This document shows, one piece after another, positions 13,514 through 47,735 of a stretch of DNA of 64,000 nucleotides (positions are counted from its first letter, which is position 1; every line of letters starts with the position of its first letter). The position numbers and the translations under genes are program-made. The notes under the pieces were generated by a model. It ran no database searches. It worked only from the letters and a program-made list of their open reading frames with translations, and was not told where the DNA came from. The stretch comes from an uncultured Actinomycetota bacterium (GTDB taxonomy: Bacteria > Actinomycetota > Actinomycetes > Streptosporangiales > Streptosporangiaceae), in NCBI GenBank assembly GCA_963826515.1, contig CAWGXI010000005.1, positions 193,610 through 257,609 on the forward strand, in the 5' to 3' direction.

Positions 13514-13765
13514 CTAGCGGTCTGCAAGAGGAGTCTCTTCTCTAGCTCTGTGGTGCACGACAACGCCCAGGCGGGCACCTCGCGGCGTTGTCGACGTCGC
13601 GCGTAGGAACCACGAAGCGTTCCTCGAGAACAAGCCTGACGGACTTGGACGCGGCGGACGAGACTGCGGACGAGGTTGCGGCGCGCTTGTATCCACTCGA
13701 GATGATCTCAGTAGCTTCCACGCTCGGAAGGGCAGATCCGGGCGTGATGTCCCGAGCAGGCCACA
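13511..13765. mobile_element. MITE-like structured repeat, family A copy 1 (partial)
   Basis: About 125 nt align with 40006-40130 (tagctagYggtctg...ctgtggtScacgacRacgccca.gcgggcacctcgcggcgttgtcg...ctcgaSRacaag). The first TAG is the stop of the polyprenyl synthase. The right TIR is missing. A family-B-like end occurs near 13740-13762. Confidence 0.6.
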
Positions 13766-19959: not shown

Positions 19960-20820
19960 ATGCCGCATCTACCGATCGGCGCCCACGTGCCGGTGGCAGG
20001 CGGCCTCGCGGCCGCCGGTCTGCGGTACGCGGCCGAGGTGGGAGCCGAGGCGATCCAGGTGTTCGTCTCCAATCCGCGCGGCTGGGCGCTGGCACAGGGA
20101 AATCCTGCCGAGGATGCTGCCTTCACCCGCGGCACCGCCGGCCTGCCCGTCTTCGTGCACGCGTCCTACCTGGTCAACCTGGCCTCACCGGATCCGCAGA
20201 CGGCTGAGCTTTCTGTGGGGTCACTGCGGCACGCCGTCCGGCGGGGCGGCGAGATCGGCGCGCGTGGGGTGGTCGTACACACGGGATCGGCCGTGCGAGG
20301 AGATCCGGATGTGGCGCTGCGCCAGGTCAGGGAGCTGCTGCTGCCGCTGCTCGACGAGATCGGCGAGGCTGGCCCAGACGTGCTGCTCGAGTCGATGGCT
20401 GGCCACGGCCAGTTGCTCTGCGCAGCCGTCACCGACTTCGGCCCCTACCTCGACGCGCTCGACAGGCACCCGCGCGTGGCGATCTGCCTGGACACCTGTC
20501 ATGCCTACGCCGCCGGCCACGATCTGGGCGCGCCCGGGGGCGTGAGCGCGGTGCTCGACGCGCTGCACGGCGCCGCCGGGCCGGGCAGGCTGAAGCTGGT
20601 ACACGCCAACGACTCCAAGGACTCATTGGGTTCGCGGCGCGATAGACACGAGAACATCGGTGCCGGGCACATCGGCAGGGAGCCGTTCGGCGAATTGCTG
20701 CGCCACCCACTCACCGAGGGAGTCCCTTTCATCGTCGAGACTCCGGGCTCAGCTGCGGCGCACGCGCGCGACATCGCCACGCTCAAGAGACTCAGGGCCT
20801 GTCCTGTGGATCTTGGTTGA
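19960..20820 (+). CDS. nfo: deoxyribonuclease IV (endonuclease IV)
   Basis: MPHLPIGAHVPVAGGLA...IQVFVSNPRGW...VHASYLVNLASPD...HTG...LDTCHAYAAGHDL...HANDSK...RHENIG. Start at the internal ATG 19960. Confidence 0.9.
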   Translation: MPHLPIGAHVPVAGGLAAAGLRYAAEVGAEAIQVFVSNPRGWALAQGNPAEDAAFTRGTAGLPVFVHASYLVNLASPDPQTAELSVGSLRHAVRRGGEIGARGVVVHTGSAVRGDPDVALRQVRELLLPLLDEIGEAGPDVLLESMAGHGQLLCAAVTDFGPYLDALDRHPRVAICLDTCHAYAAGHDLGAPGGVSAVLDALHGAAGPGRLKLVHANDSKDSLGSRRDRHENIGAGHIGREPFGELLRHPLTEGVPFIVETPGSAAAHARDIATLKRLRACPVDLG

Positions 20821-20925
20821 TGCGGGCGGTGATCCAGGCGGCGACCCGGCAAGGCCCTGCTTGTTCTCGAGGAGCCGATAGTGGAGCGATCGGCGCCGTG
20901 CCGCCAAAGACCTGCGGGACGTCCT
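20795..20925. mobile_element. MITE-like structured repeat, family B copy 1
   Basis: About 90 percent identical by eye to 46235-46345 (gatcttggttgatgcgggcgg...ggcaaggccctgcttgttctcgaggagccgatagtgg...atcggcgcc...ctgcgggac). Overlaps the last codons and the stop of nfo. Confidence 0.7.
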
Positions 20926-21011
20926 CTTTGGGCGTGACGTGGCAGGGGACCGCCACGCCCGCGATGCCGGCGTAGCGCGAAGGCCGGCGCTGATGCGCTA
21001 AACTCAGTGCC

Positions 21012-24754: not shown

Positions 24755-24976
24755 CTTGATTCCTCTCGTCGCGCCGGATCGCCGGACACGGTCCCGCGGC
24801 CAACACTAGGGCATAGCATCGTGGTTCCTTCGCCGGCAAGGGGGTCCAGCTGGATCGTGGCAGGCGCCTGCTTATCCGGGAATGAGTGTGTAGCGGTGTC
24901 CTGCACGCGACGACGACAACGCCGCGAGCGGCATGGGCGCCGTTAGCGGCGGAGACGACCCCGATGCGACACACTG

Positions 24977-38524: not shown

Positions 38525-39283
38525 ATGCCCGTCATGCCTGACGCCGAGCCGTACTCCCATGATGGCGGGCCGGTGGGCGCCCTGCTATGCCACGGATTTA
38601 CCGGGTCGCCGCAGTCAATGCGCCCGTGGGCCGAGTACCTCGCGAGCGCCGGGCTGAGCGTGTCCCTGCCCAGACTGCCCGGTCACGGGACCACCTGGCA
38701 GGAAATGGCCCGTACCCGGTGGGAGGACTGGTATGCCGAGGTCGACCGCGCGTTCGAGGGACTGGCCAGGCGGGCAAGCGAGGTCTTCGTGATGGGCTTG
38801 TCCCTCGGCGCGTGCCTGGCGCTACGGCTCGCCGAGGTGCACGGAGACGAGGTCAGCGGCCTCGTGCTGGTCAACCCGTCCATCGTCGCGGACAGCCGCC
38901 TATTCGCGCTCGCCCCCGTCATGAAGTACGTCGTGCCGTCGCTGAAGGGCATCGCGAGCGACATCAAGAAGGAAGGCTCGCCCGAACTCGCGTATGACCG
39001 GGTGCCGGTGAAGGCGGCCGCGAGCCTGCCGCACCTGTGGAGCCTGACCAGAGGTGGGCTCGGCAAGGTCACGCAGCCGGTGCTCGTCTACAAGAGTCCC
39101 GAGGATCATGTGGTTGGACCGGCAAGCCTGGCGGCGCTGCGAAGCGGCCTGCCCCCAAGCCAGCTCACGGTCAGGACCTGCGACAACAGCTATCATGTCG
39201 CGACGCTCGACAATGACGCACCGGCCATCTTCGAGGGAAGCGTGGAGTTCGTACGCGCGCACAGCCATGCCGGGAAGGAGTGA
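38525..39283 (+). CDS. alpha/beta hydrolase (carboxylesterase / monoacylglycerol-lipase-like)
   Basis: LLCHGFTGSPQSMRPWA, nucleophile elbow VMGLSLGA. Start at internal ATG 38525. Confidence 0.85.
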   Translation: MPVMPDAEPYSHDGGPVGALLCHGFTGSPQSMRPWAEYLASAGLSVSLPRLPGHGTTWQEMARTRWEDWYAEVDRAFEGLARRASEVFVMGLSLGACLALRLAEVHGDEVSGLVLVNPSIVADSRLFALAPVMKYVVPSLKGIASDIKKEGSPELAYDRVPVKAAASLPHLWSLTRGGLGKVTQPVLVYKSPEDHVVGPASLAALRSGLPPSQLTVRTCDNSYHVATLDNDAPAIFEGSVEFVRAHSHAGKE

Positions 39284-39287
39284 GCGG

Positions 39288-39785
39288 GTGGACGAGCCGG
39301 ACACGGCCGGGCGTGAGCACGACGAGGAAGAAATCTGGCGCGATCTCGTATCGCGGTTCGACGATCCTGCGGCGGACGAGGAAGCTGCGGAAGCCGCGCC
39401 TTGGCCGGCCGAGGAGAACGTGGATGCCAAGTTGTTCGGCACCCGTGTGATCAAACCGGCCGATCCTGACGCCCGCGCGGACGAACCGGCGGCAGCTCAG
39501 CCGGACGAGCCGGCGACCGCAGAACCCGACGACGCCGACGAGCATTACATCCCGCCGCCTCCGCCGCCACTGCCGCAACTCGACAGCGTCACCAAGGGCG
39601 CCTGGCTAGCCCTCTTCGGCGGCCCGGCATACCTGCTTGTCGCCACGATCGCCGGCTGGACGATTCCCGCCTGGGCGGCCTTTTGCGGGGTGGCCGCGTT
39701 CGTTGGCGGTTTCGTCACCCTCGTGCTGCGCATGAGCGACGAGGACCGCGACGAGTCGGGTCCTGACGACGGTGCCGTCGTGTAG
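39288..39785 (+). CDS. acidic N-terminus / two-TM membrane protein (hypothetical)
   Basis: GTG start just after the upstream stop. DE-rich N-terminal half, then AWLALFGGPAYLLVATIAGW..AWAAFCGVAAFVGGFVTLVL. Confidence 0.6.
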   Translation: MDEPDTAGREHDEEEIWRDLVSRFDDPAADEEAAEAAPWPAEENVDAKLFGTRVIKPADPDARADEPAAAQPDEPATAEPDDADEHYIPPPPPPLPQLDSVTKGAWLALFGGPAYLLVATIAGWTIPAWAAFCGVAAFVGGFVTLVLRMSDEDRDESGPDDGAVV

Positions 39786-39877
39786 GACTGTCTCAGGAAA
39801 AGCCAGCCAAGATGCTTAACGGCTGCCGCGTGGCGCGCCGACCGCGAGTTGCTGATCAGGCTTGGGCCGGAGGGCAG

Positions 39878-40009
39878 GGCATGTCCAGCAGATCTTTGGC
39901 TGCGACGACAGCGTCGTGCCGAATAGCCCCCTATCGGCTTCTCGAGAACAAGCGGGGCCTGCCGGATCGCCTGGAGCACCGCCCGCATCCACCGGGATCT
40001 ACGCCCTAG
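39878..40009. mobile_element. MITE-like structured repeat, family B copy 3 (opposite orientation)
   Basis: ggcatgtccagcagatctttgg...gccgaatagccccctatcggcttctcgagaacaagcggggcctgccgg...ccgcccgcatccaccgggatc...ccctag aligns with the reverse complement of 46219-46359. Confidence 0.7.
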
Positions 40010-40190
40010 CTAGTGGTCTGTCAGAGGAGTCTCTTCGGCGCTGTGGTCCACGACGACGCCCATGCGGGCACCTCGCGGCGTTGTCGTCGTCGCGCGTAGC
40101 ACCAGCGAAGCGCTCGTCGAGGACAAGCACCGCCTTGCGATGCACCCACCTGGACGCCGTTCGCTCAAAGGACCTCTGACAGACCACTAG
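40006..40190. mobile_element. MITE-like structured repeat, family A copy 2 (complete, with 18-bp terminal inverted repeats)
   Basis: ctagtggtctgtcagagg at 40010-40027 and cctctgacagaccactag at 40173-40190 are exact reverse complements. An internal conserved hairpin cgacgacgcc..ggcgttgtcg is present. The right-end CTAG contains the glk TAG stop. Confidence 0.75.
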
Positions 40191-41128
40191 CGGCGGGCGA
40201 GGTCTGCGGCACCGACGAAACCCGCGTCGGGGCCGAGCTCTGCCAGCAGGATCTGCGCGGGCATGCGGTGGCCGCGGCCGGCCAGCGAGTTCTCGAAGCT
40301 GGTCCTGGCGGGATCGAGCAGCAGGTCACCAGCCTCTGACACGCCCCCGCCGATGACGAAGCAGCCCGGGTCAAGGATGGCGGCCAGATCGGCCATGCCA
40401 TAGCCGAGCCACGATCCCACGATGTCGAAGCAGCGCAACGCCGCGGGATCTCCCTCCGCGGCCGCCCGGGTGATCTCGGGCCCGGAGATCCCCTCCGGCC
40501 TGCCGCCACCGAGTTGCAGCAGGCGCGTCGCCGCTCCTGGAGACCTCCGAGCGAACTCGCGCGCCTCGGCCATGAGCGCGTTGCCGCTCGCGTACTGCTC
40601 CCAGCAGCCGCGGTTGCCGCACCCGCACATGCGGCCGTCAGGCACGACACGGTAGTGGCCGGGTTCGCCGCCCATCCCCCAGTGGCCGCGGTACAGCTGG
40701 CCGCCAATGACGATGCCGCAGCCAATACCGGTGCCGACGGTGAGCAGGATCACGTAGCCCTCACCGCGCGCGGCCCCAAACCTGGTCTCGGCCCAGACCG
40801 TCGCGTTGGCGTCGTTCTCCACCACGACTGCAATCCCGAGGCGGTCTTCCACGGCCTTCTTGACCGGCTCGTCACGCCAGCCAAGATTCGGCGCGAACCC
40901 GACGCAGGCGCGGGCCTCGTCGACAAAGCCAGCGACGCCAAGGCCGACCGCGTCGACGACATGACGGCTACATAGCTCGGTGACGACCTCGCTGATCGTG
41001 GTGACCGTCTGCACTGGATCACTCGAAGGCGTCGGCCGCCGCAGCTTCTCGACGATTTTTCCTCGCTCGTCTACCACTCCGGCCGCGACCTTGGTACCGC
41101 CGACATCGATACCTATGGTCAGGCTCAC
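40187..41128 (-). CDS. glk: ROK-family glucokinase
   Basis: SLTIGIDVGGTKVAAGVVDE, ROK signature and CGCGNRGCWE zinc motif. GTG 41128 chosen over the track start 41227. Confidence 0.9.
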   Translation of the reverse strand: MSLTIGIDVGGTKVAAGVVDERGKIVEKLRRPTPSSDPVQTVTTISEVVTELCSRHVVDAVGLGVAGFVDEARACVGFAPNLGWRDEPVKKAVEDRLGIAVVVENDANATVWAETRFGAARGEGYVILLTVGTGIGCGIVIGGQLYRGHWGMGGEPGHYRVVPDGRMCGCGNRGCWEQYASGNALMAEAREFARRSPGAATRLLQLGGGRPEGISGPEITRAAAEGDPAALRCFDIVGSWLGYGMADLAAILDPGCFVIGGGVSEAGDLLLDPARTSFENSLAGRGHRMPAQILLAELGPDAGFVGAADLARR

Positions 41129-41129
41129 C

Positions 41130-41645
41130 TCAGGTCTGTTGCCCGTTCTGGGACGGTGGCATGTCAGGGGGCGGCGCCTGGCCGGGGCGCGCGGAAGGTT
41201 TCTGCGGCGCGGGCGGCGGCGCTGCACCGGCCGGCGCGGCGGGTTCCTGCCGCACAGCCGTGCGGGTTGCTGGGGGTGGCGCCGCGGCCTGCGGTGGCGG
41301 CGAGGGTGGCGCGCTATCTTGCGGCCCCGGGATCCGGGAGATTGCCGCGTCGACTGCGGTCACCACGTCATGCGCGGCCGACATCAGCGCCCCGGCGGTC
41401 TCGCCAACGCGGCCGGCGAGGTCGGGGTTCGAGTCGCGGGCCATGCGGATCGCTCGGCACACCGGGCACCACGCGCACTCGGGCGCATAGCCGGCGGCCG
41501 AATCCACGGGCTCGGTGGTGGCGGTCTCCCACACGTCGCCCCTCTCGCCGCGGAAGGTTCTGCCGACCTGTCCGGCGACCTGCTGGCCGACGCTGCGTGC
41601 GCCCGCGATGGCGATCCGCCGCTGAAGGTCGTCGAGCCACGTCAT
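41130..41645 (-). CDS. SCO2127-like conserved actinobacterial protein (DUF5304-type)
   Basis: Located immediately upstream of glk, as in Streptomyces. CAWCPVCRAIRMAR motif and a Pro-rich C-terminal tail. Confidence 0.65.
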   Translation of the reverse strand: MTWLDDLQRRIAIAGARSVGQQVAGQVGRTFRGERGDVWETATTEPVDSAAGYAPECAWCPVCRAIRMARDSNPDLAGRVGETAGALMSAAHDVVTAVDAAISRIPGPQDSAPPSPPPQAAAPPPATRTAVRQEPAAPAGAAPPPAPQKPSARPGQAPPPDMPPSQNGQQT

Positions 41646-46218: not shown

Positions 46219-46359
46219 CTAGGGGATGTCCCGTTGATCTCGGTGGATGCGGGCGGCGCGCCAGGCGGCGACCGGCAAGGCCCTGCTTGTTCTCGAGGAG
46301 CCGATAGTGGAACTATCGGCGCCGCCAAGGATCTGCGGGACACGCCCCGCAGGCCTAGG
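46219..46359. mobile_element. MITE-like structured repeat, family B copy 2 (complete, imperfect TIRs with CTAGG ends)
   Basis: Left end ctaggggatgtcccgttgatc and right end gatctgcgggacacgccccgcaggcctagg form imperfect inverted termini. Central hairpin ccgatagt-gga-actatcgg next to cttgttctcgag. Confidence 0.7.
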
Positions 46360-47524: not shown

Positions 47525-47735
47525 TCCTTCTCCCACGCGCCGCCTACCGGGTGAGCTGACGGGTTCGGGCGGTGGAAGACGCGCCCTACGGGTACGGCCA
47601 TTAGATGACCGCTCCCGATTCACCCCTGGAGGAACAGACCCGGCGGCACGCGCCACTGGGTTGTACGGTCTCCTCCGGCGGTTCCCCGGCTCCAACGCCG
47701 ACGGTGCGGCGATGAGGACTCGGCGGGAGCCCATT
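47525..47735 (-). promoter_or_regulatory. ydaO/yuaA-type cyclic-di-AMP riboswitch
   Basis: The minus-strand leader contains CUCCCGCCGAGUCC...GGAGCCGGGGAACC...CAGGGGUGAAUCGGGAGCG...CGCCCGAACCCGUCAGCUCACCCGGUAGGCG. These are the conserved ydaO blocks in the right order, ending just before the SD and GTG of an NlpC/P60 gene. Confidence 0.8.

Follow-up and report, generated by a model that had tools for sequence, protein, structure and literature searches.

Probable IS630/Tc1-mariner-type miniature transposons with a CTAG preference fill the spacer behind a glucokinase gene in a Streptosporangiaceae genome

The glucokinase gene glk of a Streptosporangiaceae assembly is separated from a convergent gene by a 405-nt spacer (39786-40190), nearly all of which is repeated DNA when its coverage is profiled against the rest of the genome. 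The locus lies in a window (the whole stretch of DNA analysed, 64,000 nt) corresponding to C5:193610-257609 of an 18-contig, 6.9-Mb assembly with 68.7% G+C. We refer to this genome as G000, to a sister genome as G001 and to relatives from the same genus as G002-G006. [quoted passage not shown] Successive insertions of such non-autonomous transposons would have filled the spacer: a transposase acting in trans would recognise the tips (~12-18 nt) and excise the element, which would integrate at a TA, preferably inside 5'-CTAG-3', duplicating the TA, and its G...C body would rebuild CTAG on both sides. We infer mobilisation in trans by the very transposase found in G001, the order of insertion at glk, and any effect of the long hairpin on transcripts of glk or its neighbour.

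BLAST and nhmmer searches of G000 retrieved 25 loci of family A, 15 of them full length (181-185 bp, 85-96% identity), and 148 loci of family B, 41 of them full length (~185-195 bp), in addition to a short form of ~137-141 bp that includes B3. Together they amount to 173 loci and 22.7 kb, or 0.33% of the genome. An earlier note on this DNA, which had recognised both families in the window and suggested such a census, expected hundreds of copies genome-wide, which was about right. Many copies are truncated in the nhmmer census. Both families are non-coding and bear terminal inverted repeats, with perfect 18-nt tips in A and tips of ~22 nt in B, the B-type tip beginning TAGGGNNTGTC. In alignments that included 40-nt flanks, similarity stops sharply at CTAGTGGTCTGTCAGAGG...CCTCTGACAGACCACTAG for A and at CTAGGGCGTGTCCCGYAGATCT...AGATCTRCGGGACACGCCCTAG for B. 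The flanks are unrelated between copies (15 A and at least 30 B aligned), and the copies are spread over at least 10 contigs. The exact 18-bp inverted repeats attributed to A2 by the earlier note are present and extend by one base: the arms, 40009-40027 and 40173-40191, are 19 nt long, 100% complementary and 145 nt apart, and the 18-mer CTAGTGGTCTGTCAGAGG, for which 0.06 chance matches are expected in the window, stands at both ends.

Filled and empty sites were compared by joining the flanks of 37 copies with a script and searching for these constructs in six genomes of the same genus, from which 18 matching places were retrieved. Many constructs matched across the junction; other sites were filled in both G000 and G001. 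Relatives contain a single CTAG where G000 has CTAG-element-CTAG, in eight clean pairs with flank identities of 84-96% (Table 1). The glk site itself is empty in G004 (92% identical), where the spacer measures 40 nt and ends ...GTTCG-CTAG-CGGCGGGCGAGG, with the same stop codon. Since this spacer carries a lone CTAG at the glk stop, the CTAG there is native. In G002 and G005, the glk stop is TGA and no elements are present. An orthologue of B3 is found in G001 and is absent from G004, G002 and G005. At the G001 locus (98% identical), a motif of a third repeat, family C, and the B3 orthologue are followed by TA-GTGGTCTGTCAGACCAC-TA, a 17-nt remnant of A tips. A frameshifted 1.7-kb IS4/IS1634-like element (G001 L036 2512-4233, C12) lies between this remnant and glk, and a further B-like end lies at the stop codon. 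Near-identical genomes thus differ in this spacer, a hot spot at which insertions have nested. Segmental duplication, the circumstance that the earlier note thought would undo its interpretation, is excluded by the unlike flanks of the copies and by sites that vary from genome to genome; the empty sites the note had suggested looking for exist.

Sequences of the form TA-GTGGTCTGT(A/C)AGACCAC-TA, i.e. 17-nt 'mini-A' sequences made of two 8-nt tips only, also occur in G000 (C2:523029 and C3:618872), besides the copy at the G001 locus (L036 2491-2511). A footprint of normal Tc1/mariner excision would be shorter; these sequences may be remnants of full elements left by hairpin deletion.

The duplicated unit can be deduced from the ends of family B. 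Left-hand 4-mers of B copies include CTAG (26) and TTAG (8), and right-hand 4-mers CTAG (21) and CTAA (10). Single copies pair TTAG with CTAG or CTAA, and CTAG with CTAA; TTAG...TTAG was never seen. The ends of B can be written YTAG...CTAR, with the two outermost bases varying independently, which indicates that the outer base belongs to the target, that the element proper is G...C and that only TA is duplicated. A duplication of 3 or 4 bp would need identical outer bases. Intact ends of A are nearly all CTAG, which is compatible with a TA duplication but cannot separate it from duplication of CTAG. Among full-length copies, CTAG makes up 21/30 ends in A and 47/82 in B. The earlier note's view that the elements target CTAG, therefore, stands as far as the preferred target is concerned, but the asymmetry of the B ends shows that the duplicated unit is TA and not CTAG. 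IS630 favours TA within 5'-CTAG-3' (Tenzen & Ohtsubo 1991, as cited in PMC2170065). With ISY100, TA duplication was obtained in vitro (PMC2170065). Duplication of TA together with a preferred CTAG target is the signature of IS630/Tc1-mariner. Being short and non-coding, with inverted tips, dispersed copies, a target duplication and pairs of filled and empty sites, A and B are MITEs, and the non-autonomous, MITE-like character proposed in the earlier note holds.

CTAG is the most under-represented palindromic tetranucleotide in the genome (4963 copies), with an observed/expected ratio of 0.70 under a second-order model and of ~0.25 from base composition; its rarity had been correctly anticipated. 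As G opens the body of the elements and C closes it, an insertion yields CTAG anew on either side. At glk, this restores the C-TAG stop, formed by the TA and the terminal base of A2, and leaves the protein unchanged. The stop is the complement of 40187-40189, i.e. the last base of A2 plus the flanking TA, and lies in the right-hand CTAG of A2, as previously noticed. Each element also offers two fresh CTAG targets, which accounts for back-to-back and nested elements. Four of 18 long A copies adjoin a B copy, and at C18:200425 and C10:292183 of G000 an A copy sits exactly in the terminal CTAG of a B copy, so that one CTAG is truly shared. This does not apply to B3 and A2, for which a common CTAG had been described: B3 ends ...ACGCCCTAG at 40009 and A2 starts CTAGTGG at 40010, so that the junction together with 40006-40008 reads CTAGCTAG, with two CTAGs side by side. 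We also compared element ends with all CTAGs for overlap with TAG stop codons, calling a stop where 60 open codons lay upstream with G+C at third codon positions (GC3) of >=0.82 and at second positions (GC2) of <=0.62. Such an overlap was found for 14 of 190 intact element ends (7.4%) and for 245 of all 4963 CTAGs (4.9%). A special preference for stop codons was rejected, as the ends are only marginally above the CTAG background and show no clear enrichment. The coincidence of CTAG and stop codon proposed earlier is real at glk but is not clearly a preference of its own: stop codons are hit as a by-product of the distribution of CTAG.

A cognate transposase was sought among the 29 DDE_3 (IS630-type) and 51 DDE_Tnp_1 matches of G000 and in a DDE_3 screen of six related genomes. 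The intact IS630 copies of G000 all end CTAGTG... or CTAGGG..., and none of them has A or B tips. The screen yielded a 1,178-bp IS630-family element in G001, present in two copies with 99.2% identity. It encodes an intact 372-aa transposase with matches to NF033545 (286.6 bits, cut-off 100), PF13358 (DDE_3, 72.9 bits) and the helix-turn-helix (HTH) domains HTH_32/29/23, and the flanking TA together with G makes up its own stop codon. At its right end, CTAGTGGTCTGTAAGACC, the first 12 nt equal those of the A tip CTAGTGGTCTGTCAGAGG, and 15/18 positions agree overall. A-like MITEs in G006 and G124 have tips, CTAGTGGTCTGTAAGAGG, that are closer still to this end. To judge from these ends, family A is most likely driven by the 1,178-bp element and moved by it in trans. 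The G000 copy of the element (C5:339538-340739) is a pseudogene with a replaced internal segment and a premature stop, so that family A is probably stranded there or would have to borrow the transposase of another element. Of the transposase with matching inverted repeats, which the earlier note had proposed to look for, a candidate matching at one end was found for A and none for B.

Several observations weigh against this account. In G000, neither two A tips nor two B tips bound an element of 0.6-5 kb, hence no autonomous partner is resident. At its left end, CTAGTGTTCTGACGCGTG, the G001 element agrees with the A tip at only 12/18 positions, and the interior of A is unlike that of the element; given the match at one end only and the unrelated interior, A did not arise from it by simple deletion. 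For B, no cognate element was found. Several non-IS630 insertion sequences of G000 (IS4/IS1634-like and DDE_Tnp_1) also end in CTAG, so CTAG ends alone are not diagnostic, and for B it is the TA duplication that points to IS630. Finally, soil-metagenome short-read contigs contained no empty-site or excised variant of the locus.

Candidates for an autonomous parent or partner of B were discarded. The three pairs of B tips that were found belong to MITEs separate from one another. In G001, the 1.7-kb IS4/IS1634-like element next to glk was rejected as its related copies in G000 have unrelated ends (CTAGCCTGACTTTCC) and the B-like end lies outside the element. IS5-family elements of ~990 bp and other DDE_Tnp_1 elements have ends that differ from those of B.

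Families A and B are internally homologous over TCCAGG..GCAAGGCGG...apical hairpin...GCGACGACGACA..GC.GCGAGG..CC.GG, a fold-back core of ~95 nt. The motif CTCGASRACAAG has 6 matches in the window with one mismatch allowed, against 0.99 expected, and A2 carries GTCGAGGACAAG, one mismatch away from it. The string ctcgaSRacaag, reported in the earlier note as common to both families, does occur in both; it is not a separate signal but a variant segment of the core, TCGAGRACAAG, 9-12 nt long, and the short form without it reads CTCCTCCTCCGCC. Among copies longer than 120 nt, the segment occurs in 16 A and 33 B and the short form in 2 A and 38 B. Both tip classes bear both core variants, which argues for exchange between the families. 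The core also lies under other tips in other genomes: CTAGTGCCGCGACTG in G019, AGGGGGTATCCCGTGGGTCT in G026, CTAGTGTCCTGCGTCGGA in G028, whose first 15 nt are identical to one IS630-element end of G000, and CTAGTGTCGCGTGTCGGA in G025, there beside an IS630 element ending CTAGTGTCCTGCGCC, with the terminal CTAG common to element and MITE. A covariance model of 95 core positions found it in at least 7 of 301 sampled Actinomycetota genomes (4 genera of 199 sampled), a lower bound, as 14 candidates were scored per genome. Four of the seven carriers belong to one genus with 7-10-Mb genomes and have B-like tips, e.g. CTAGGGCGTGTCCGGCGGATC. All 44 core matches of G000 lie in A or B. An origin of the core as a piece of an IS630 element was rejected: four core variants compared by BLAST with 35 transposase loci matched neighbouring MITEs only.

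A seven-family alignment of the core retains one long fold-back, in which 20 of 50 consensus pairs show compensatory changes. A2 folds into a single long imperfect hairpin of -93.5 kcal/mol on the plus strand and -106.7 kcal/mol on the minus strand (z of -6.4 and -7.3), the more stable fold being that of the strand expected in a glk transcript. The orientation of B copies located downstream of gene 3' ends is biased 43:22 (p 0.0125), in one of several tests made and with crude GC3-based gene calls. Core columns are slightly better conserved among copies than the tips. No U-tract terminator, promoter or integration host factor (IHF) site is evident in the core or MITE sequence. At gathering thresholds, no Rfam family matched the A2/B3 spacer. 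A permissive scan gave weak matches resembling microRNA precursors only, which were rejected as they mirror a generic long hairpin.

These properties could be read as those of a functional structured nucleic acid, i.e. an RNA hairpin that terminates or stabilises transcripts of convergent genes or a single-stranded-DNA signal, which the transposon tips would only carry around, with the glk copy kept because it is useful. We consider this reading, which is compatible with MITE insertion, possible but not probable. It would fit a core common to A, to B and, in other genera, to MITEs bearing different tips, its compensated pairs, its detection by the covariance model, the better fold of the purine-strand RNA, the bias of B behind gene 3' ends and the slightly stronger conservation of core positions. 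Against it, the arms of any fold-back element covary by construction or through intrastrand repair, so the covariation that the earlier note had suggested testing for exists but is to be expected anyway; the orientation bias carries the limits given above; terminator and Rfam match are lacking; G004, G002 and G005, with the glk site empty, do without the core; and many copies are truncated. A stronger version appears somewhat more doubtful to us: on the comparative fold, the core might be an autonomous, selected, strand-specific structured module (RNA or single-stranded DNA) that has repeatedly gained or swapped IS630-type tips to suit the resident transposase, and copies just after stop codons might act on transcript 3' ends where genes are closely packed. 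It would consist of a helix on the outside, a junction (CAAGGCG/CAACGC), a stretch of GGAGGAGGAG over GACGACGAC, which can form tandem G.A pairs, and an apical hairpin whose stem changes are compensated.

It is unlikely that A and B, or B in particular, are MITEs of another transposase with a liking for CTAG, such as an IS5-group or IS1380-type enzyme (both with a 4-bp YTAR/CTAG duplication) or an IS427/IS1031-group enzyme. The missing partner of B would speak for this, as would B tips that start GGG, like many IS5-family ends, the presence in G000 of ~990-bp IS5-family elements with ends GAGGGCATCTGATC, and the several DDE_Tnp_1 and IS4-like elements that end in CTAG there. Yet equal outer bases, predicted by a 3- or 4-bp duplication, are contradicted by TTAG...CTAG, CTAG...CTAA and TTAG...CTAA; an IS630 element of G000 has itself an end that starts GGGG (CTAGGGGTCC), and B shares homology in its body with A and with MITEs whose tips match IS630 ends. 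Far less plausible are palindromes of the REP/REPIN kind, disseminated by a RAYT (Y1) transposase, or simple segmental duplications of local extent. Other hairpin repeats abound in the genome and the elements are palindromic, but they have terminal inverted repeats, a TA duplication and precise empty sites, and REPINs lack target duplications; moreover, A tips match an IS630 end, and unrelated flanks surround the dispersed copies. Insertion of IS630/Tc1-mariner-type MITEs, therefore, remains our preferred explanation of the spacer.

Other transposable elements of G000 were recorded alongside. A 1,706-bp and a 1,232-bp element, distinct members of the IS630 family, stand back to back with one CTAG in common (C5:66891-66894). 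This composite has two copies, at C5:65189-68122, which is outside the window, and at C9:101976-104910. At C6:~296865-298790 and C16:~738331-740258 lies an IS4/IS1634-like element of 1.93 kb whose 31-nt inverted ends start CTAGCCTGACTTTCC, and other DDE_Tnp_1 elements end CTAGCACCAAAGCC, CTAGATCGATGACC and CTAGTATTACAGTC. The variety of DDE_Tnp_1 and IS4-like ends implies that several transposase families in G000 use CTAG-type targets.

The features of the locus are collected in Table 1. In the coverage profile, 39808-39846 is matched by up to 39 other copies, the right end of B3 (~39876-40009) by ~110 and A2 (40010-40190) by 17-30. The earlier note had placed B3 at 39878-40009. That it abuts A2 is correct, but its left boundary is not: the tip GGGCATGTCCAGCAGATCT starts at 39877 and is preceded by CA, a decayed left TA (39875-39876), the right TA being intact at 40007-40008. 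The core of B3 is of the 'long' variant, CTCGAGAACAAG. The 243-aa product of the convergent open reading frame has no Pfam match.

Table 1. Features of the glk spacer in the window, and empty insertion sites of families A and B in relatives
Feature	Coordinates	Strand	Remarks
Upstream convergent open reading frame	39054..39785	+	243 aa, ends ...DDGAVV*; left spacer edge; conserved throughout the genus relatives, with orthologues in G004, G005, G002, G001
Family C repeat copy	39808..39846	.	Third short interspersed repeat AAGATNCTTAACGGCTGCCGCGTGGCGCGCC; not a MITE; same position in G001 and G002
B3, short-form family B MITE	39875..40008	+	Body 39877-40006, GGGCATGTCCAGCAGATCT to GGGATCTACGCCC; aligned with 30 other copies; hidden Markov model match 39912-40003
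B3/A2 junction	40009..40012	.	G 40009, target base after the TA of B3; C 40010, target base of A2; TA 40011-40012, left TA copy of A2
A2, full-length family A MITE	40013..40187	+	175-nt body, GTGGTCTGTCAGAGG to CCTCTGACAGACCAC; shared core ~40055-40158 (core model match G000 C5:233664-233767)
A2 right flank	40188..40190	.	Right TA copy 40188-40189, target G 40190
glk, ROK-family glucokinase	40187..41227	-	346 aa; PF00480 263.7 bits, PF02685 35.7 bits; stop overlaps A2 end
Empty sites, family A	C18:200425; C12:174273; C12:451716		Against G001 (96% flank identity); G003 and G006; G004, respectively
Empty sites, family B	C10:754792; C5:446986, C12:149672, C10:241583, C12:62735		Against G001 (first site) and G004 (remaining four)

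Family C gave 64 BLAST matches genome-wide, e.g. C2:481649-482150, C12:866318-866666 and C18:67516-67867 of G000. A G+C-rich hairpin (GGGGGTTCCGGGGGG..CCCCCCGGGCTGGC) often comes after it, and some copies are arranged in tandem arrays whose period is ~77 nt; the TTAA/CTAA of the repeat has served as an insertion target of B (C5:55549). Elsewhere in the window, A is represented by a right-truncated copy at 13515-13636 (+) and B by copies at 20794-20927 (-) and 46219-46323 (-); a degenerate match at 24844-24942 (-) covers only the core and is missing from the earlier list. A c-di-AMP (ydaO-type) riboswitch at 47525-47735 (-), with 64 bits against a gathering score of 38, is the sole Rfam family in the window.

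The assembly of the locus was compared with Logan contigs from four soil metagenome runs. One contig matches 39500-40074 without a difference and so spans B3 into A2, a support that is not fully independent, as the best-holding run may be the window's own source sample. These contigs break within the repeats, where k-mer depth climbs from ~7 to 45-310. In the species-representative collection, the A tip is matched exactly almost only in soil metagenome-assembled genomes (MAGs) labelled Streptosporangiaceae or uncultured Actinomycetota. The exact 18-nt tips were also seen on contigs binned to a Thermomicrobiales MAG (L081, L089) and to an Acidobacteriaceae MAG (L097), which could be due to horizontal spread or to contamination during binning. 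The plasmid collection contained no match to the families, and our literature search returned no publication describing them or IS630 MITEs of actinomycetes.

The insertions explain how a 40-nt spacer grew to 405 nt and why a stop codon lies within a repeat, and the repeats, at 15-45 times the k-mer depth of their flanks, explain intergenic breaks in short-read assemblies of these soil actinomycetes. The case is a clean natural example of 'safe-landing' logic: with G as first base, C as last base and TA duplicated inside CTAG, an element keeps stop codons intact and creates the next targets, so that elements stack up behind genes. Genomes with glk 3' ends 98% identical differ in which elements are present, a polymorphism that provides usable strain markers. 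The core common to families with different tips is the sole point beyond the routine; if it is functional, the elements would spread a regulatory hairpin.

Among known systems, IS630 of Shigella sonnei and ISY100 of Synechocystis resemble the present case in the TA duplication and the preference for TA in CTAG, as described in PMC2170065, and in the HTH plus DDE_3 architecture seen in the candidate partner of A; unlike them, A2 and B3 have no coding capacity and rely on a transposase supplied in trans. The Correia/NEMIS elements of Neisseria are likewise TA-flanked MITEs with inverted tips and length variants of an internal segment, and effects of their hairpin transcripts on neighbouring mRNAs have been described (PMC2229807). 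Their sequences are unrelated to A and B, they have no known cognate transposase, and A and B have no evident IHF site or promoter. Stowaway elements of plants, driven by Tc1/mariner, also duplicate TA, have nothing but their tips in common with the autonomous mariner-like element and undergo cross-mobilisation in trans, but they are eukaryotic and lack the CTAG context. To our knowledge, a core conserved across families is not a feature of Stowaway. The closest described system is RUP with IS630-Spn1 of Streptococcus pneumoniae: non-coding elements of 100-200 bp in ~100 copies, with tips like IS630-family ends (Oggioni & Claverys 1999; as reviewed in PMC2229807), which, in the same review, insert at TA, have TA at both termini, would give long stem-loop transcripts and tend to land in or beside other mobile elements. 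A and B differ from RUP in lacking sequence similarity to it, in their high-G+C actinomycete host, in the strong CTAG preference and in having two tip classes around one core; in addition, the A tip matches only one end of its candidate element, which is itself decayed in G000. A and B are undescribed families of a well-known kind, RUP-like IS630 MITEs.

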